Positions 3,389 to 10,609 of a stretch of 10,609 nucleotides of DNA are shown here, piece after piece. The notes below the pieces were generated by a model. That model saw only the letters and a list, made by a program, of their open reading frames with translations. It had not been told where the DNA came from and searched no databases. The position numbers and the translations under genes are program-made. This stretch comes from Candidatus Riflebacteria bacterium HGW-Riflebacteria-2 (GTDB lineage: Bacteria > Muiribacteriota > Ozemobacteria > Ozemobacterales > Ozemobacteraceae): assembly GCA_002839435.1 (NCBI GenBank), contig PGYA01000016.1, positions 64,001 through 74,609 of the forward strand. The letters are read 5' to 3'. Numbering within the stretch: position 1 is the stretch's first letter; each line of letters opens with the position of its first letter.

Positions 3389-3976
3389 TTACAGCAGCGC
3401 TTTTAAAATCAGTGAACGGGCCTGGCTGATATTTCGCGAGACAGCTGGTGGAAAGGGCAAAACGAATACCTGCTCGGCCGTGTCGCTGACGAAGCGGATG
3501 ACGGCGCCGTTTAGCTCCCTGCCCTGCATGGCTTCGGCGAAAAAGAAGCTTTCCATATCGACCAGGCTGGCGTCGTATTTTGCGGCCAGTTGTGCGCGGT
3601 CGTCTCTGGTGATTGCCGGCTGGTCGACAGTTACAACTGCTGCCGGCGGCAGGTCGGCCGGGGCGGGCAGCTCAAGCTGACGACAAGCGTAAAAAAATCT
3701 GTTGCAACAGAACAGCTGGCCCACCTGCAGTTCGGGCGCGAGCGCTCCGGCTGCGCCAAATAGGATTATGCGTCGATAGCTGGCCTGTGTCAGTTCTCTA
3801 TCGAGCAGCGCAAACAAAGGGTCGCCGCCGGCGGCATTGGCTGTGACCAGCCGGCCACCTTTAAAAAACCAGCTTGCAGCGTCTGATTGCCGGCAATCTG
3901 GCAGGATAGCGGCCAGCAGCCTGGCTTCGGCTTTGAACGGCGCCAAAATAAGAGTCTGCGGGTCTGTCGGGCTCAT
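3389..3976 (-). CDS. MTA/SAH-nucleosidase (PNP_UDP_1) family protein, short futalosine-hydrolase-like form; candidate 5'-deoxyadenosine nucleosidase
   Basis: 195 aa. The segments ILFGAAGAL, VVTVDQPAITRDD, SLVDMESFFFAEA and AVIRFVSDTAEQ align by eye with the E. coli Pfs motifs INTGSAGGL, VSGDAFINGS, AVEMEATAIA and VRAISDVADQ. This includes the catalytic Glu in the (V/D)ME context and the Asp of the SD motif. The start overlaps the upstream gene stop by 4 nt (ATGA). Confidence 0.8.
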   Translation of the reverse strand: MSPTDPQTLILAPFKAEARLLAAILPDCRQSDAASWFFKGGRLVTANAAGGDPLFALLDRELTQASYRRIILFGAAGALAPELQVGQLFCCNRFFYACRQLELPAPADLPPAAVVTVDQPAITRDDRAQLAAKYDASLVDMESFFFAEAMQGRELNGAVIRFVSDTAEQVFVLPFPPAVSRNISQARSLILKALL

Positions 3977-5022
3977 TTCTGCAGACTCCGGTCAAGCATC
4001 TTTTTGAGATCCGCGCTGCCGAAAGTTGTGTTTTTTAGGCGTTCCCAGACTTCGGGGGTTTCCATGCACATGTAGATCGGCACGTCGACGAAGTGTTTCT
4101 GCAGACCGGCGCGGGCAAAATTGTAAATCTGCTCGCGGAAAGGCCTGAAATATCTGATCTTACCGTCAGTCGAAGGGTAAAATTCTTCGGCGAGAATGCC
4201 GGTGTCAGGGTGATATTTTTCGACGTTTTCCTGAAACCCTTTTGGGAAGCGAAAAGTGCCCAGGGAAATCCAGTTGATCTTAAGTCCGTGCAGATATTCG
4301 TGCATAAGCGCGAATACTTCTGAATAGCGTTCCTGCCAGTTCTGCAAGGGCAGTAACGGATCGAAATGAAACGCCAGCGCGCAGCCTTTTTCTCGGGCAG
4401 CCGAGGCTGCTGCATTCAGGCGCTCACGCAGTGAGGCCGCGCCATGTTCGAGGCGATCGATGTATTCCTGCGGATTCAGCGAAAAGGCCAGAGTTACGTG
4501 GCGCGCATCTTTTGCCTGCATTATTGCCTTTATATCAGAGCTTTTGCTTTTGACTTCGAGCGTGAAATCAGGCATTCCGGCGGTCCATTCAATGATCGCA
4601 GCGTTGAGCGGGAAAATTCCTTCGAGCGCGAGCGGATCGCCGAACTGGCCGGTGCCAAGTCTGATTGGCCCGCTGATGCGTTCGCGCAGGTCGATGATTT
4701 CTCGGCGGCAGTCTTCCCAGTTCAAGAAAAGTGTTACATCGCCGGCGCCGGTATAATTCTGGATTATGCAGTATTCGCACTCGAACGGGCAGCCCATCCC
4801 CCACTCCACTACCCAGTAACCGCAGCAGACGCTGCCTTTCTGACCCGGACATGGTTTTACAAACGCCCCGCGATTGAGAGTGAGCAGCAGACCATCGCCT
4901 GGATGCTGTTCGCCGCTGACTTCATGCCGCTGCTCAAATTCAATCAGGCTCTCGATCTGTTTTGCCAGCGGCAGATCCTTGACCCGCTCATCAACATAGA
5001 GGTTTTTGAAGCTCAGATTCAT
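3973..5022 (-). CDS. Radical SAM protein of the spore-photoproduct-lyase (SplB/SPL) family
   Basis: 349 aa. The N-terminal NLYVDERVKDLPLAKQIESL matches the SPL N-terminus VYIEPRALEYPLGKELKDKF of B. subtilis SplB. The radical SAM triad GCPFECEYC (C78-x3-C82-x2-C85) sits where SplB has CMGHCHYC. A second block, FSLNPQEYIDRLEHGAASLRERLNAAASAAREKGCALAFHFDPL, matches SplB FSINADYVIKNFEPGTSPLDKRIEAAVKVAKAGYPLGFIVAPI. ATG start with a 2-nt spacer after the ParB-like gene stop. Confidence 0.85.
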   Translation of the reverse strand: MNLSFKNLYVDERVKDLPLAKQIESLIEFEQRHEVSGEQHPGDGLLLTLNRGAFVKPCPGQKGSVCCGYWVVEWGMGCPFECEYCIIQNYTGAGDVTLFLNWEDCRREIIDLRERISGPIRLGTGQFGDPLALEGIFPLNAAIIEWTAGMPDFTLEVKSKSSDIKAIMQAKDARHVTLAFSLNPQEYIDRLEHGAASLRERLNAAASAAREKGCALAFHFDPLLPLQNWQERYSEVFALMHEYLHGLKINWISLGTFRFPKGFQENVEKYHPDTGILAEEFYPSTDGKIRYFRPFREQIYNFARAGLQKHFVDVPIYMCMETPEVWERLKNTTFGSADLKKMLDRSLQK

Positions 5023-5024
5023 TA

Positions 5025-5855
5025 TTAAAGCTCTTCGACGGCCGCGAAAATTGCATCGACTGCGGCCTGAGCTTCGGTTAAACGGCCGCTGTGCCGGCGG
5101 GTCAGATTGCAGGTCAGCTGCATGCCGGGTTTAGAAAACGTCTGGTCGATTTTTATGGTTATTCCTGGCGGCAGCGGGTTTTGTTCGAGGGCACGCGCGA
5201 ATTTGTCGAGCGCATCAGTTCTGCGCGGCTGCGCCAGGCGCTGCAGGTTTTCGAGTGCTTCGGCAGCATTGTTGCCGGGTAGTTTTTCTGGTAGAACTCT
5301 CTTTCGCTGGGCCTGCCGCAAAAACATCGCGATATTGCGCTTTTCAGAGACCGTGCCGGGCATGGTCAGCAGATCAAAGGCAAAAAGCTTCATGTCATCA
5401 CCAAGATGTGCAAGCTCTCGCCATATATTGAGCGGCAGATTATGCTTGCCACATTCAGGATGACAGAGCAGATTGCACCCGATAAAGCGCAGGGCAAGAC
5501 GTAGCTGGGGCGAGTCGGTGCATCCGGCCAGCTTCAACATTTCAGCATGATCTGATGGCGCACAGCTGGCAAATGCGGCTGTCAGCTCGCAAGCACTCAA
5601 CTCTCGATGACTGTTCAATTGAACAAACAGCAACGCCGGCAACCCGGTTGCTTCAATACAGGGCACACTGCTGTGCCCTAGTTCTTTAAGGGCAAGAAGC
5701 CGCCGGTGCCCGTCACAAACAGTGTTCTGAGCGATAACCAGTGGTTGTAAAACACCATTTTCTCTGATGCTGCACAACAATTTCTCTTCAACCGGCGCCG
5801 TGAATGAATCAATCAGTGGCATCAATTCATTTATCTGAACTTCAATAATTTTCAT
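5025..5855 (-). CDS. ParB/Srx-like nuclease-domain (ParBc) protein with a C-terminal extension of unknown function
   Basis: 276 aa with an ATG start. The N-terminal ~90 aa (LIDSFTAPVEEKLLCSIRENGVLQPLVIAQNTVCDGHRRLLALKELG) shows the ParB-like nuclease domain pattern (hydrophobic-DGHHR-l-A-k-lG). The remaining ~180 aa are Cys/His-containing with no motif I recognise. First gene of the three-gene operon. Confidence 0.7.
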   Translation of the reverse strand: MKIIEVQINELMPLIDSFTAPVEEKLLCSIRENGVLQPLVIAQNTVCDGHRRLLALKELGHSSVPCIEATGLPALLFVQLNSHRELSACELTAAFASCAPSDHAEMLKLAGCTDSPQLRLALRFIGCNLLCHPECGKHNLPLNIWRELAHLGDDMKLFAFDLLTMPGTVSEKRNIAMFLRQAQRKRVLPEKLPGNNAAEALENLQRLAQPRRTDALDKFARALEQNPLPPGITIKIDQTFSKPGMQLTCNLTRRHSGRLTEAQAAVDAIFAAVEEL

Positions 5856-5863
5856 GATACCGC

Positions 5864-5892
5864 ATTGTAACGCATACCGGCATCACCATCAA
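5864..5892 (-). promoter_or_regulatory. Candidate sigma70-like promoter for the ParB-like/SPL-like/MTAN-like operon; would give a near-leaderless transcript
   Basis: On the minus strand the sequence reads TTGATG-N17-TACAAT, with the -10 hexamer ending 8 nt before the ATG at 5855. No Shine-Dalgarno precedes this ATG. This assumes sigma70-type promoter rules apply to this organism. Confidence 0.25.
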
Positions 5893-6286
5893 GCAGCATA
5901 AGAGAGTTCATGGTATAACCCGCCCGCCGGCGACAGCTCGGCGGTCTGTTCTGCTCTAGTGGCCGTTACTCAACTAATTCGATCATAATCGAACTATTTG
6001 CATAAATTGTAGTTTAATTCTTTTATGATCAAATTTAATGAGCAGATCTTGTATTGGCAGATGAACCTGCTTGATTTTCTTCTTTAGCAGATAGATCCTG
6101 GAGAGCCGCGGTCTGAATTGGTCGCTGCGCAAAAAAACATACATGAAAGTTGGCTGCATCATATTCTTTTGTACGTATTTTCACTTACAGGCTGTTTGCG
6201 ACTTTTATGTAAGAATTATAGTAGTTCAGATGTAATACCTGTATGTGATTTTGGCTATGATAAGAGAAATGAATCCTCTCTGAATG

Positions 6287-6316
6287 GAGCTGCCTGCGCG
6301 GGCAGCTTCTTTTTCT
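6287..6316 (+). terminator. Canonical Rho-independent terminator (GC-rich hairpin plus T-tract) on the plus strand with no annotated upstream gene
   Basis: The stem agctgcc (6288-6294) pairs with ggcagct (6301-6307) across a 6-nt loop tgcgcg, and g6287:t6308 adds a wobble pair. The stem is followed immediately by tcttttttct. The reverse complement has no U-tract, so orientation is plus. Confidence 0.5.
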
Positions 6317-6372
6317 GAGCTATGATCCACTATTTTTAAATTTTGAGCTGTTTTGCAGCATTGCCCGCATTT

Positions 6373-6405
6373 CTAAAGAGCGCAGGGGTGAACCACGCGA
6401 AACCC
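6373..6405 (-). pseudogene. Orphan 3'-terminal remnant of an FGE-sulfatase-domain gene
   Basis: The 23 nt at 6383-6405 (caggggtgaaccacgcgaaaccc) match 22/23 with the 3' end of the FGE-domain gene (8294-8316, caggggcgaaccacgcgaaaccc). 19 nt also match the internal domain junction at 9399-9417. The minus strand here reads ...HHFGFRVVHPCAL*, against WKGFRVVRP* in the gene. The stop codon is mutated TGA to TGC and only ~14 codons are open upstream. Confidence 0.4.
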
Positions 6406-6416
6406 GAAATGATGAG

Positions 6417-6445
6417 TTGCAGATATTCAATCACCATGTTATTAT
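6417..6445 (+). promoter_or_regulatory. Candidate sigma70-like promoter upstream of the NTase-fold gene
   Basis: TTGCAG-N17-TATTAT at 6417-6445, about 37 nt upstream of the TTG start at 6483. The match is weak and assumes sigma70-type rules. Confidence 0.25.
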
Positions 6446-6482
6446 TAAGTTATACGTAAATACATTGTGGTAATAAATTATT

Positions 6483-7067
6483 TTGAATAGTCTAAGTTGC
6501 GAAAACTTAAAAGAGATTCTGAGTCGTCTCAGCGAATTGATCAGCCTTGAGACAAACCAGTGCTTTGAACTGGTTGTCTGCGGCGGTTCGGCTCTGATAG
6601 CACTTGGTTTGATTGAGCGAACTACGCGTGACATCGATGTTGTCGCTGTTGTAAAAGGCAATTTATTTGCGGACCCCGAACCCTTGCCGGCAGAGATGAT
6701 TAAAGCCGCTGCCAGAATTGCTCAATATTCAGATTTACCGGCTGACTGGTTGAACACGGGGCCTGCCGATATCTTCAGAATGGGGTTGCCAGATGGCTTT
6801 GGCAACAGGCTCGTTACCTGGCATGTCGGCAGGAACCTTGTCATACATTTTATCAGCCGGCTGGATCAGATTCATTTCAAACTCTACGCAGCAGTCGATC
6901 GCGGGGGATATCACATAACAGATCTCATGGCTCTCAACCCATGTGACAATGAAATTCTGCAGGCTGCGAGATGGGCACGAACTCATGATGTCTCTGATGG
7001 TTTCAAAGAAATGCTTGAATTCCTTTTAAAGGAACTGGGTTATGAAAGAATCATTGCTGAATTATAA
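6483..7067 (+). CDS. Minimal nucleotidyltransferase-fold (Pol-beta superfamily) protein; candidate toxin/antitoxin or defence component
   Basis: 194 aa. The NTase signature hG[GS]...D-x-D is present in ELVVCGGSALIALGLIERTTRDIDVVAV. The C-terminal helical part (HFKLYAAVDRGGYHITDLMAL) is typical of small NTase toxin/antitoxin proteins. The only in-frame start near the 5' end is TTG at 6483 and there is no clear RBS. The 3' end overlaps the next gene by 26 nt. Confidence 0.55.
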   Translation: MNSLSCENLKEILSRLSELISLETNQCFELVVCGGSALIALGLIERTTRDIDVVAVVKGNLFADPEPLPAEMIKAAARIAQYSDLPADWLNTGPADIFRMGLPDGFGNRLVTWHVGRNLVIHFISRLDQIHFKLYAAVDRGGYHITDLMALNPCDNEILQAARWARTHDVSDGFKEMLEFLLKELGYERIIAEL

Positions 7068-8076
7068 AAACCAGCTGCTGGAAAAGATGCTAAAACTTCT
7101 CTGGTCGGGCTGGGCACAGCTTGGCGTTGCAGGTTATAAACCAGTCCGCTGGAAAAGGGTTATCGACATCGAAGCCTTGATTCTGACCACATGCTTCTGG
7201 GGAAGATACGATCAACGGCTTTTTGATGAAATGCTGTCCTGGTTGCTGGCAAACGAAAGGTTTGTCAATATTCAGCGGCTCCAGACCATCATAAAAAAAG
7301 AGACTTTTCATGAACCGGGACTTCTTGGGCCAATAAGCCGCAAACTCTGCAGAAAAAATCGTACCCCGAAATGGCGTGGAATAGCAGGAAAACTGGAAAG
7401 ACAGCAGGCAGTATTACAGCCTGAAAAGCTGTTTTTGTTTCCTGATAATAAACCATTGCCTGTTATCGGCGCAGCCGACGATGATTTTGCTGAGTGCGGC
7501 TTTCTGCGACTGCCCTTTATAGATCGTCAGCTGTCGACAGACTTTACAACAGGGGTGGCGGCAACGCTGCAGCTACAGTTGCGGGCTTTTTTCGGAGTAT
7601 GTTCGCGAGCTGAAATCATGCTTGCATTTTTTATCAACAATCAGGCGAGTATAAGTGATATCGCTGCCAGCTCTTATTATTCATGGAAATCTATTCAGGA
7701 AGCTCTTTTTGAAATGTCTCATTCTGGCATTGTGAGCCATCCTGCGTCTAAGCGGGAAAGGCGTTACTATCTTGCCTCAGAAAACTGGACAAAACTGTTT
7801 ATTGGCCAGGAAACGGACTGCCCCGAAAAATTCCACTGGTGCAAATTTTTCAGCGCCATGGAAATTCTCTGGCAAAAGGTCACTAACCCTGCCTTCGGCA
7901 ATTTATCAGAGAAAAGCATGGATATTGAAATTGCAGATCTGGTAAACCAACATCTGCAAAGCCTGTTAACAGCAGCCGACGAAAATTGGCGGGTTTCTTC
8001 TCCCGCAACATCCTGTGAAAACTTCCTTGCAACTTTCTCGGCCTTTATAATCACTCAGCTTAAACAGCTTCAGTAA
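7042..8076 (+). CDS. Hypothetical protein (344 aa) overlapping the NTase-fold gene; putative cognate partner
   Basis: Long open frame with an ATG start (MKESLLNYKNQLLEKML...). Overlaps the preceding gene by 26 nt. GC appears lower than the flanks. I recognise no catalytic motif. Confidence 0.55.
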   Translation: MKESLLNYKNQLLEKMLKLLWSGWAQLGVAGYKPVRWKRVIDIEALILTTCFWGRYDQRLFDEMLSWLLANERFVNIQRLQTIIKKETFHEPGLLGPISRKLCRKNRTPKWRGIAGKLERQQAVLQPEKLFLFPDNKPLPVIGAADDDFAECGFLRLPFIDRQLSTDFTTGVAATLQLQLRAFFGVCSRAEIMLAFFINNQASISDIAASSYYSWKSIQEALFEMSHSGIVSHPASKRERRYYLASENWTKLFIGQETDCPEKFHWCKFFSAMEILWQKVTNPAFGNLSEKSMDIEIADLVNQHLQSLLTAADENWRVSSPATSCENFLATFSAFIITQLKQLQ

Positions 8077-8190
8077 CCTTCTCTCACACAGGCTTCACAG
8101 AAAAAAATGTGCCCGGTGGTAGTCGCGCTGTGAGCGGGAAGCGCTGCGGCTTGCCGCCTTCGCGCAACCCGCTCTCCGCACGCTGTCGCA

Positions 8191-8219
8191 CCCAGCTTCG
8201 GCTTGAGGCCGAAGCCGGG
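8191..8219. terminator. Strong GC-rich hairpin between convergent genes, without a U-tract
   Basis: ccc-a-gcttcggc-ttgag-gccgaagc-c-ggg forms a perfect 8-bp stem (8195-8202 with 8208-8215) plus three outer GC pairs across a 1x1 mismatch. It lies in the 216-bp GC-rich spacer between the plus-strand gene ending at 8076 and the minus-strand gene ending at 8293. Neither side has a T-run, so it is either a non-canonical terminator or another structured element. Confidence 0.3.
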
Positions 8220-8292
8220 AATGGATAATAATGGATCGTCACAGGATATGGTTTATACCTGACCGCACTATGATTGAGAAGCCTGGGTTAAC

Positions 8293-10609
8293 TCAGGGGC
8301 GAACCACGCGAAACCCTTTCCAGTTGGAAGCGGAAGCCATGCCCGCGCTATAACGACTGGGGAAGTAGCTGGGGTTGCTGCCGCCGCTGCCGCCACGACA
8401 GACCCGTCCTGAAGAACCAGTTAAAGCGCCGTGATAGTCATAGACAGTATTGCTTGGGTAGTTTTCAAAAAAGTCCCAGCACCATTCAAATACGTTACCG
8501 CTCATGTCATACAGACCCAGTTCATTCGCCAGTTTTGTTCCAACCGGGTGGGTCTTGAAGCTTGAATTATCACTAGACCAGGCATAATCGCCGACGGTAT
8601 TACTGCTATTGCTGCCAGCAAATGGCTTTGCATAACCAGTTAAATTAACTCCACCGCTCACGGCACCGGGTTGACTGTCCTGGTCAGCGCCCATTGCTGC
8701 CCACATCCATTCCATTTCGGTCGGCAGGCGATAACCATTAGCCGACCAGTTGCAGGTCGCCGCATCCCAGTCGGTATTAGTAGTGGTCGGTATTGCTGCG
8801 TAGGTAAGCGTCGAAAAGTCAACGCTATTAACTTCGTAGACAGGCGTCAGGCCTTCGGCAATACTGAGTTTGTTACAGAACGCGATCGCGCAATACCAGT
8901 TTGTGAATTGCACCGGGTCGGTGACGCCATTTGAAGTCTCTGTCACGCTTGGGTCAGATCCCATAATTGCACTGAACTGCGTTCTGGTAATCTCATGCTG
9001 GCTCATTCTGAAGCCTTTGGTGATTATTGAAATATTCGCCTCATCAGAATCCCGCTGAAACGACCCCGCTGGCACATACTTCAACGTCCCGATAGTTGCA
9101 GATGAGTAGTCACCCCATATCTGCTTGGCAGAGCTGTAAACGGTGCCGCTGTAGCTGTCTTTGCCGGCGGCGGCAACACGAACGTATTTACCGCTAGCTG
9201 TTTTGGCCAGATCAACGACATAAGTATTGGTGGTGACACCTGCAATATCGGCCCAACCGGCCGAACCGTCATCGCTGACCTGCCACTGATAAGTAACGGC
9301 GGCATAACTCGGGGTCAGTGCCCCGGCGGTCAGTGTCTGACCACTCTTTGGCAAACCAGTAATGCCACCAATCTCAGTCACCGGCACAATCACTGAGCGA
9401 ACCACGCGAAACCCGAAGCCGTTGCCCTGGTAGTTCGGGCTGCTCCTGTTACGGAAGGCCACGGTAGCTTTGTCCGCGGCAAAGGCCCAGCTACCGCCGC
9501 GCATCACACGGTCCGAGCCAGTTCCAGCACCACGGTAATCGGAGTTAGAATTCTCGGGGTAAATGTTATACCAGTCCCAGCAGAATTCCCAGGCGTTGCC
9601 ACTCATATCAGAGATGCCAAGTTCATTCGCCTGTTTTGTTCCAGCAGGGTGAGTCTTGCTGCTAGCATTATCAAAATACCATGCATAATCTCCAACTGCC
9701 CCCCCCATGCCCTCGCCAGCATACGCTTTATTGTATCCGGTAGTATTGGTTGCACCAGGATTGCCTGTGTCAGCGCCCATTGCTGCCCACATCCATTCCA
9801 TTTCGGTTGGCAATCGGTAACCATCTGCAGCCCAGTTGCAGGTCGCAGCGTTCCAGGTTGGGTTGTCACTTGTCGGCACTGCACCCCAGACAGACGGATC
9901 GGTTGAGCCGCTGATAGTGTAGACCGGAGTCAGGCCTTCGGCAATGCTCAGTTTGTTACAGAATGCAATCGCATGATACCAGTTAGCCATCTGCACAGGG
10001 TCGGAGACTCCGTTCGAATAGCTTGTATTACTCGGATCAGTACCCATAATCACATTGAACTGAGCCCTGGTTATCTCATGCGCGCTCATGCTGAACGCCG
10101 AAACAAATGATGTGTTTGCCGCGGTTGCGTCACGCTGAAAGGTTCCGGCGGTAACACTTACCATGGTCGGCATTCCCAGAATCTTTTCGGCAGCACTGAA
10201 AACCTCACCACAATAAGACCCATTACCTGTAGCAACAAGCCGGACATATTGCCCTGCAGCTGATTTGGCAGGATCAACTTCATAGCTGGCTGTAACGGCA
10301 CCGGATATATCAAGCCATGCGTTAACGCCATCATTACTTACCTGCCATCTATAATCAACCGTAGCCCCAACAGGAGTTATTTCTCCAGCTGTCAGCGTCT
10401 GCCCGCTCATCGGAATACCCGTAATCGCACCTATTGCGGTCACCGGTTCAGCGGTGGCTGCAAAAACAATTGAGACCAAACCCGAGTTGGCAGCATTGGT
10501 AGAAGTTCCGCCGGCAACTGTAAAGAAGTTTTCAGCAACGCCAGTCAGCGTAAAGCCGGCCTTCGGCGTAAGAGTTACTGTCGCAGTGTAAACTGTGCCT
10601 GCAGCAAAG
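8293..10609 (-). CDS. Large secreted/surface-type protein, 5'-partial (runs off the window end): Big-like segment plus 2 x [Ig-like domain + FGE-sulfatase (SUMF1/EgtB/PvdO-type) domain]
   Basis: The ORF-track start at 10479 is a TTG. The frame stays open to 10609 (…FAAGTVYTATVTLTPKAGFTLTGVAENFFTVAGGTSTNAANSGLVS IVF…), so the true start lies beyond the window. There are two FGE-domain copies with the hallmarks GYRLPTEMEWMWAAMGAD, DMSGN(A/V)(W/F)E(F/W)CWD, RGGS and GFRVVR. Each is preceded by an Ig-like module (ITG(I/L)P(M/K)SGQTLTAG...Y(R/Q)WQVS(N/D)DG). Confidence 0.85.
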   Translation of the reverse strand, partial: FAAGTVYTATVTLTPKAGFTLTGVAENFFTVAGGTSTNAANSGLVSIVFAATAEPVTAIGAITGIPMSGQTLTAGEITPVGATVDYRWQVSNDGVNAWLDISGAVTASYEVDPAKSAAGQYVRLVATGNGSYCGEVFSAAEKILGMPTMVSVTAGTFQRDATAANTSFVSAFSMSAHEITRAQFNVIMGTDPSNTSYSNGVSDPVQMANWYHAIAFCNKLSIAEGLTPVYTISGSTDPSVWGAVPTSDNPTWNAATCNWAADGYRLPTEMEWMWAAMGADTGNPGATNTTGYNKAYAGEGMGGAVGDYAWYFDNASSKTHPAGTKQANELGISDMSGNAWEFCWDWYNIYPENSNSDYRGAGTGSDRVMRGGSWAFAADKATVAFRNRSSPNYQGNGFGFRVVRSVIVPVTEIGGITGLPKSGQTLTAGALTPSYAAVTYQWQVSDDGSAGWADIAGVTTNTYVVDLAKTASGKYVRVAAAGKDSYSGTVYSSAKQIWGDYSSATIGTLKYVPAGSFQRDSDEANISIITKGFRMSQHEITRTQFSAIMGSDPSVTETSNGVTDPVQFTNWYCAIAFCNKLSIAEGLTPVYEVNSVDFSTLTYAAIPTTTNTDWDAATCNWSANGYRLPTEMEWMWAAMGADQDSQPGAVSGGVNLTGYAKPFAGSNSSNTVGDYAWSSDNSSFKTHPVGTKLANELGLYDMSGNVFEWCWDFFENYPSNTVYDYHGALTGSSGRVCRGGSGGSNPSYFPSRYSAGMASASNWKGFRVVRP
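8296..9393 (-). repeat. Tandem duplication unit B (Ig-like + FGE domain, residues 363-728 of the visible ORF)
   Basis: Copy offset from unit A is about 1.09 kb. Long near-identical nucleotide runs support this, e.g. 8689-8721 and 9777-9809 (gcccattgctgcccacatccattccatttcggt), and 8850-8880 against 9939-9969. Confidence 0.7.
9394..10452 (-). repeat. Tandem duplication unit A (Ig-like + FGE domain, residues ~11-362 of the visible ORF)
   Basis: The two units are colinear at the protein level and match at most positions, with long identical blocks such as LTPVY, CNKLSIAEGLTPVY, GYRLPTEMEWMWAAMGAD and KTHP(A/V)GTK(Q/L)ANELG. The unit boundary falls exactly after GFRVVRS. Confidence 0.7.

Follow-up and report, generated by a model that had tools for sequence, protein, structure and literature searches.

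Diversity-generating retroelements (DGRs) copy the RNA of a template repeat (TR) into cDNA with random bases opposite adenines, and this cDNA replaces a variable repeat (VR) in the target gene. In an intact element, the target gene is followed closely by an accessory gene (HRDC), the gene for a reverse transcriptase (RT) and the TR, HRDC being the defining mark of DGR 'architecture C', the Treponema type (PMC5758913; PMC4891356). Proteins of the FGE-sulfatase type (FGE, formylglycine-generating enzyme) form the largest DGR target class, and a target with three tandem FGE-sulfatase domains is known, with internal VRs and an initiation of mutagenic homing (IMH) sequence that must be coding (PMC5758913). 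The architecture C target TvpA (TDE2269) of Treponema denticola carries its VR at the C-terminal end (PMC6328139) and is reported to be without formylglycine-generating activity (PMC5758913), while T. denticola strains that lack the RT retain target genes, a pattern taken to mean that the DGR core is gained and lost (PMC4891356). The present analysis concerns a relative of TvpA in Candidatus Riflebacteria bacterium HGW-Riflebacteria-2 (assembly GCA_002839435.1), encoded in a stretch of 10,609 nucleotides (contig PGYA01000016.1, positions 64,001 to 74,609 of the forward strand), hereafter the window. The window contains the 3' portion of its gene (2.3 kb out of 5,823 nt), an open frame at 8293..10609 on the minus strand, and the 5' part lies beyond. 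The product is a lipoprotein of 1,940 aa whose C-terminal region consists of two tandem units, each an Ig-like module followed by an FGE-sulfatase domain.

This protein is probably a TvpA-class DGR target, a variable surface lipoprotein, in a degenerate DGR locus from which the core has been lost. The reading is carried by the fold and the absent catalytic residues of the FGE-sulfatase domains, the adenine-biased mismatches in unit 1, the active-type cassettes found at the closest homologues, and the cis relics that survive in the locus. In the proposed mechanism, ligand-contacting loops would be written by adenine mutagenesis: the VR would encode exposed, ligand-binding loops between RGGS and GFRVVR, and an IMH-like tail of the form GGGTTTCG...CCCTGA, together with a GC-rich hairpin behind it, would guide replacement. 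The locus would formerly have held a complete cassette, of which HRDC, RT and the TR body were presumably exchanged for a two-gene DUF6036 module. The VR of unit 1 would still be recognisable, the segment in unit 2 scrambled past alignment and the element behind the VR partly decayed, so that both VRs would now be frozen, or reachable only in trans.

Among solved structures, the closest relative by sequence is TvpA (2y3c; E = 2e-43, and E = 8.7e-40 with unit 2 alone), and a Foldseek search with the model of unit 1 returns the same protein as its best match (E = 7.6e-23, target-normalised TM 0.81, 35% identity), whereas catalytic FGEs appear at E ~1e-12 with 17-19% identity. The human (SUMF1), Streptomyces and Thermomonospora FGEs have the Pfam family and the overall fold in common with the window domains, but the Cu-binding catalytic Cys pair (C-x4-C after RGGS), with which those enzymes form formylglycine, is gone from both units. 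In HMMER alignments to Streptomyces FGE (2q17 / 6muj), the two positions are opposite a gap or residues other than Cys in unit 1 and opposite G/S and F in unit 2, and neither segment after RGGS contains a Cys. The first-pass annotation had predicted both the missing pair and a non-enzymatic binding fold, and in this it was right. What escaped it is the DGR identity of the protein: the Cys-less segments that it quoted are the VR positions, and the relics of the DGR cis elements lie outside the interval that it described.

The likeness to TvpA extends beyond the fold. Both proteins are lipoproteins of the HRDC-type DGR lineage, both are devoid of the catalytic Cys pair, and in both the variable repeat sits at the C-terminal end of the domain, on the scaffold RGGSW..A..(C/A).VA.R....P.......GFR; in the HMMER alignment, the variable segment of unit 1 falls on the C-terminal end of TvpA. 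The differences lie in size, residues and surroundings. TvpA is small and single-domain, whereas the window protein has 1,940 aa with two tandem Ig + FGE units, 95-aa repeats (counted as seven) and more N-terminal domains; of the two Cys, TvpA retains the second, where window unit 1 and its close homologues have Ala; and RT and TR are not beside the window gene. By analogy with TvpA and its reported want of formylglycine-generating activity, the FGE-fold domains would belong to a binding protein, adhesin-like or receptor-like, and not to an enzyme.

The two units are colinear (354 and 363 aa), and the tandem arrangement of Ig-like and FGE-sulfatase domains described in the first-pass annotation is borne out by two matches to PF03781 (FGE-sulfatase; E = 3e-70, 237 bits against a gathering cut-off of 23.3) and by direct repeats at offsets of 1083-1101 nt. 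Unit 1, which is internal, comprises an Ig-like module of the AIR9 A9 / SCAB-Ig type at 10189..10446 and an FGE-sulfatase domain with a C-type-lectin fold at 9397..10170 (PF03781, fragment residues 147-404). The C-terminal unit 2 comprises an Ig-like module at 9130..9384, placed by colinearity with unit 1, homology and the structural model, and a second FGE-sulfatase / C-type-lectin-fold domain at 8296..9069, placed by the second PF03781 stretch and the TvpA match, its start at 9069 being approximate and set by colinearity with unit 1; all four lie on the minus strand. The ~85-aa modules ahead of the FGE domains themselves score below threshold for every Pfam model, and the label 'Ig-like' is justified by their homology (43-49% identity) to the repeats of protein P0020, which Pfam assigns to IG_AIR9 / SCAB-Ig. 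Predicted models are all-beta for these modules, with low confidence in unit 1 and pLDDT 65-82 in unit 2. The AlphaFold model of unit 1 exceeds pLDDT 90 in its FGE part; that of unit 2 does so over most of its FGE domain, with 75-87 in the segment equivalent to the VR.

Across the units, 207 of 348 aligned residues are identical (59% at the amino-acid level, ~65% at the nucleotide level), which is well short of the 'near-identical repeats' announced earlier, and of the 'runs of >30 identical nt' only one exists: it spans 39 nt and encodes YRLPTEMEWMWAAMGAD, and the second-longest run has 18 nt. Divergence between the units peaks in a stretch of 23-25 codons bounded by RGGS and GFRVVR. In unit 1, these form a VR core of 25 codons (WAFAADKATVAFRNRSSPNYQGNGF; 9415..9489, minus strand), recognised by adenine-biased mismatches to TRs and by NNC codons, followed by an IMH-like tail (GGGTTTCGCGTGGTTCGC; 9397..9414, minus strand) that encodes GFRVVR and matches the tails of homologues and of TRs down to the synonymous sites. 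In unit 2, the equivalent segment has 23 codons (GGSNPSYFPSRYSAGMASASNWK; 8317..8385, minus strand), assigned by its position in the unit and its NNC codons, and its IMH-like tail (GGGTTTCGCGTGGTTCGCCCCTGA; 8293..8316, minus strand), which encodes GFRVVRP and the stop, shows 0-2 mismatches to the tails of homologous targets and of TRs.

Variation in the family is concentrated in this region. In an alignment of 45 sequences, the top-entropy positions (321-323, 326, 331, 333-336, 338-339 and 341-344) reach ~3 bits, are occupied mostly by S, N, Y, D, G and F, and lie between RGGS and GFR, interleaved with a fixed scaffold (A324, C/A327, V329, A330, R332, P337, Q/R340 and GFR). Codon usage follows the same boundary: in each of the two window segments, 60% of the codons are NNC, against 30% in the remainder (p ~0.002 each; 14/23 in unit 2), and over nine family genes the share is 59% in the VR segments against 35% elsewhere (p = 1e-16). 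When window unit 1 is aligned by codon with four homologues from other assemblies, the scaffold codons are the same even at synonymous sites, while the variable codons follow the pattern NNC, in which the final C never changes; one NTC column and one CNN column (CAG / CGG / CAA / CTG) are also present. Averaged over sequence pairs, the differences at codon positions 1/2/3 amount to 0.42 / 0.41 / 0.29 in the VR segment and 0.19 / 0.14 / 0.37 in the rest of the domain, and such a reversed order of codon positions is the product of AAC-templated, adenine-specific mutagenesis (PMC5758913).

A TR peptide was deduced from the VR alignment and then used as a protein query. Its matches are Asn-rich open reading frames (ORFs) of 43-93 aa, the best 91% identical to the inferred peptide, which sit right after HRDC and RVT_1 (RT) genes and overlap the 3' end of the RT gene (L252-L255). 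The TRs obtained come from other metagenomes, none having been found for the window genome, and mismatches were counted against one of them, the L254 TR, over a 111-nt core with 32 adenines and 79 other bases (Fisher p). Against this reference, the cis VR of L252 differs at 18/32 adenines and 3/79 other bases (p = 2e-9; against its own TR, 18/32 and 2/79), target L248a at 21/32 and 1/79 (p = 1e-13), and window unit 1, for which the TR is non-cognate, at 15/32 and 6/79 (p = 7e-6). Unit 2 differs at 24/32 adenines and 40/79 other bases, with no register. Its segment, two codons shorter than that of unit 1, is out of register with the whole TR family, and its similarity to canonical VRs is not above that of shuffles; the possibility that it is a frameshifted canonical VR was rejected on this comparison.

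Intact cassettes are found at the closest homologues. The protein most similar to the window protein (P0002) is the target in a locus (L258) ordered target-HRDC-RT-TR, where 18/36 adenines and 2/96 other sites differ between the VR and its own TR, both of the latter in the first codon. Locus L247, once taken for a remote, RT-less target, proved to be the same locus as L258, its contig merely ending after the gene. In a second cassette (L256), the target has two units, both of which align colinearly with those of the window protein (64% identity) and are joined by the same linker, RSVIVPVT.IGGITG; HRDC and RT come next, and then the beginning of the TR. Comparison of its two VRs (L256:520-650 and L256:1628-1757) with their own TR gives 14/21 differing adenines and 0/56 other sites for the C-terminal VR, and 9/21 and 10/56 for the internal one, so the terminal repeat would be the one currently templated and the internal one an older, drifting copy. 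This suggests that, after unit duplication, only the copy beside the element that follows the VR may have remained a target. In the described target with three FGE-sulfatase domains, tandem like those of the window, diversification seems to affect all three repeats; in L256, a perfect TR match is confined to the C-terminal one.

Relics of such a cassette are present in the window itself. Behind the gene, at 8109..8223 on the minus strand, homology and folding identify a conserved structured element with a GC-rich hairpin and a multi-stem domain, partly degraded in the window. This 115-nt post-VR element occurs in all targets examined (L256, L252, L247 (= L258), L248a, L249 and L251), with a consensus fold of -70.7 kcal/mol that contains an 11-bp GC-rich hairpin and a multi-stem domain supported by 3 compensatory pairs; in its long-range stem, 6/8 pairs have one sequence broken each. 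Folded alone, the window copy loses the long-range stem (minimum free energy -65 kcal/mol against -72 to -81 kcal/mol in the others), and its first hairpin still folds. A GC-rich inverted repeat behind the IMH is a known DGR feature (PMC5758913), and no Rfam family matches window 5800-8400, the post-VR element included. The gap between stop codon and element measures 69 nt in the window (8224-8292) and 16-24 nt in six homologous loci, that is, ~45 nt extra.

A second relic is the remnant of a TR 3' end (GGGTTTCGCGTGGTTCACCCCTG) with its post-TR region at 6350..6407 on the minus strand, continuing more weakly to ~6263 and recognised by its similarity to TR ends. Over 58 nt, it is 77.6% identical to the TR ends of L252 / L253 (E ~1e-9), and an extended alignment to L257 scores 81 against 26 +/- 3.7 for shuffles and includes a shared downstream hairpin. 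The stub lies 1.9 kb downstream of the stop, and in intact cassettes the VR end is separated from the TR end by ~1.75-1.85 kb. A 23-nt 'orphan tail' within the stub (6383-6405) might have been an att-like direct repeat at the edge of a cassette insertion, a reading that was dropped because its flank is homologous to post-TR regions.

The space between the two relics is occupied by other genes, both on the plus strand. At the RT/TR position lies a DUF6036 nucleotidyltransferase gene with weak AbiEii similarity (6483..7067; PF19502 E = 6e-9, AbiEii E = 1e-3) in a segment of 45-49% GC, against 52-56% in the target gene, and at the HRDC/RT position a 344-aa ORF with no family assigned (7042..8076), for which neither Pfam nor PADLOC gives a match and in which tblastn detects no RT or HRDC remnant. 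No RT or HRDC was found from ~18 kb downstream to ~4 kb upstream of the gene, by Pfam on called genes or by tblastn with the L252 RT and HRDC. A complete TR (~100-130 nt) was not found in the locus either, only its last ~25 nt and the post-TR region being left: a regular-expression search of contigs L001-L004, in which every VR base was allowed as itself or A with up to 8 substitutions, matched only the VRs themselves. Viral contigs scanned for a VR/TR-type pattern and for the tail gave no match. Set beside HRDC cassettes ('architecture C', Wu et al. 2018, PMC5758913; here L252, L255, L256 and L258), the window thus has target, post-VR element and TR end in the same order, at similar spacing and with the same tail sequence, next to a target colinear with that of L256, but HRDC, RT and TR body are gone, and the opposite-strand DUF6036 gene and 344-aa ORF stand in their place. 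The orphan targets of T. denticola likewise show a VR signature without a local RT; unlike them, the window keeps a TR fragment and the post-TR region in place, which makes the loss of the core mappable to the locus.

Several points weigh against a core-less DGR target as the whole explanation. No cognate TR or RT has been found for the window genome, and the 6 non-adenine mismatches of unit 1 cannot be split, with foreign TRs, into TR divergence and later drift. Unit 2 is linked to DGRs only by its tail and its NNC codon bias; it is the counterpart of the perfectly templated C-terminal unit of L256, yet it has no TR register. The similar spacing of VR end and TR stub could be a coincidence, and the binding function and surface exposure of the protein are predicted properties. 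The scope of the search, ~28 kb of a 186-kb contig, matters as well: since RT contigs of the HRDC-type DGR lineage are mostly 1-6 kb long and assemble poorly, a DGR acting in trans is possible.

Such an active remote arrangement, with a DGR elsewhere in the genome diversifying one or both VRs in trans and the local cassette loss of no consequence, is an unlikely alternative. Both IMH-like tails are intact, the first hairpin of the post-VR element survives, DGR targets are known to lie remotely, at distances above 100 kb (PMC5758913), and a Riflebacteria RT of the HRDC-type lineage exists (P0166). Three further targets (L248a, L249 and L251) have no RT in their recovered flanks, yet combine the post-VR element with strongly adenine-biased mismatches, as in the case of L248a above. 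Contigs bearing the RT often end in or just past the TR (L252-L261), so binned genomes would tend to lose the RT core and their targets to appear orphaned. Against ongoing diversification, both variable segments are identical in L001 and L002, that of unit 2 also in L003 and L004, and the NCBI protein is 100% identical (these samples may not be independent); contigs pass through the unit 2 segment unbroken. The window copy of the post-VR element is without its long-range stem, no TR found is in register with unit 2, and among the 120 best RT relatives none comes from the metagenome-assembled genome (MAG) of the window. A target whose core was lost locally remains our preferred account.

A more far-reaching possibility, which we regard as speculative and rather doubtful, is that the 115-nt post-VR element acts as a dedicated target-recognition module that licenses genes genome-wide for diversification in trans, in which case the window gene would still be live and the swap of RT cores for toxin-antitoxin-like modules would be a recurrent switch between local and remote modes. 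The element is larger than the simple IMH-plus-hairpin of Bordetella. In three loci, FGE-type DGR targets are followed closely by convergent toxin-antitoxin-like modules: DUF6036 with the 344-aa ORF (window 6483-8076), HicAB, AbiEii/AbiEi and AbiEii/DUF6088, those outside the window at L248:10618-11232, L248:14779-16316 and L249:4280-5897. Their position beside targets could reflect chance in variable regions or a recurrent association.

The model implied by the first-pass annotation, a static lectin-like surface protein shaped by tandem duplication, ordinary mutation and selection with no retroelement involved, is very improbable. It accommodates a locus without RT, HRDC or complete TR, the absence of the Cys pair from both domains and the lack of variation among overlapping contigs. 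However, ordinary evolution is not expected to hold the third-position C of variable codons fixed, to leave a CNN column, or to keep scaffold codons the same from genome to genome down to their synonymous sites. The sorting of the unit 1 mismatches by TR adenines (15/32 against 6/79) contradicts the static model, which also leaves unexplained why the locus contains the 3' end of a TR and a post-VR element of the DGR type, and why the closest homologues are textbook DGR targets. Surface-displayed catalytic domains of the FGE or EgtB/PvdO type, as suggested by PF03781 membership, by the automatic annotation of homologues as 'SUMF1/EgtB/PvdO family nonheme iron enzyme' and by weak NCBIfam matches to EgtB, SenA and PvdO, are scarcely credible when the Cys pair is gone from both units, all NCBIfam equivalog scores are 5-10 times under their cut-offs and the closest structure is the non-enzymatic TvpA.

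With the core-less DGR target as the favoured account, the annotation of the gene shifts from a non-catalytic FGE repeat protein to a DGR-type variable surface lipoprotein, and the window provides, at base-pair resolution, a DGR locus that has lost its RT core and kept target, recognition element and TR stub. The mechanism is unchanged, and targets that are multi-VR, HRDC-type, remote or orphaned have all been described before (PMC5758913, PMC4891356). The literature searched contained no paper connecting Riflebacteria with DGRs, and the new points are modest: a Riflebacteria host, a mapped replacement of the RT core and an undescribed conserved element downstream of the VR. Of wider use are the finding of TRs through a protein-database search with an Asn-rich peptide inferred from a VR alignment, a conserved structured post-VR element that lies outside Rfam, and two-unit targets in which only the terminal repeat is perfectly templated.

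The full extent of the gene is seen in L001 (JGI Ga0246098_00138, 186 kb), the longest contig, which is 100% identical to the window across the gene and in which the ORF (L001:11252-17074) extends upstream to give 1,940 aa. In the window, the minus-strand frame that ends with the stop at 8293 is free of stops up to 10608, the last full codon before the window end, and the translated fragment is 100% identical to PKL48960.1 (CVV42_08165, partial) from a Candidatus Riflebacteria MAG. Since the ORF runs on upstream in L001, the gene does not begin at the TTG at 10479, in agreement with the earlier placement of the 5' end beyond the window. The N-terminus outside the window, read directly from L001, is MKSDTSGSTRFFAILLVLFVAAVTLISGC, which has the form of a signal peptide ending in a lipobox with its Cys. 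The protein would accordingly be a surface-type lipoprotein, as had been suspected. Its domain order from the N-terminus is lipoprotein signal, a part with weak, sub-threshold similarity to beta-sandwich domains of the SdrD_B / CarboxypepD_reg type, a Big_12 domain, an array of 285-nt units, and the two Ig + FGE units.

The array consists of 5.8 copies with 87% matches, encodes 95-aa repeats (…AVPGVTAPVTGATPVTTITETAQYTGTVSWSP…) without a Pfam match, and enters the window with its first 126 nt at 10484..10609 on the minus strand (L001 coordinates converted by offset), continuing in L001:13443-15106. The first-pass annotation had expected recombinational length variation between the two Ig + FGE units, which finds no support; at only ~65% nucleotide identity these are far less alike than the copies of the array, which is the likely place of copy-number change. 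The JGI assembly carries Ns within the array.

In locus L248, a second 'orphan' GFRVVRP tail (L248:5789-5812), which may be a remnant of a VR or of a TR, is flanked by two AAA_14/DUF4143 genes, and a target gene follows 2 kb downstream. Homology begins exactly at GGGTTT, and on its 3' side the tail has a flank similar to the 3' flank of the second target gene of the locus.

The 344-aa ORF beside the target gene was found on four public contigs, all identical to the window at 100% wherever they overlap, L001 with one exception. Farther downstream of the target, window 3389-5855 holds three adjoining genes on the minus strand, for a ParB_N-like protein, a radical SAM protein of the spore-photoproduct-lyase family (PF20903) and a PNP_UDP_1-like protein. 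Within the ORF of the first (5025-5855), the 115 nt at window 5146-5260 correspond to 10 nt in the otherwise identical L001, where the ParB_N-like product has 241 aa against 276 aa; the difference may be an assembly gap or a real indel.

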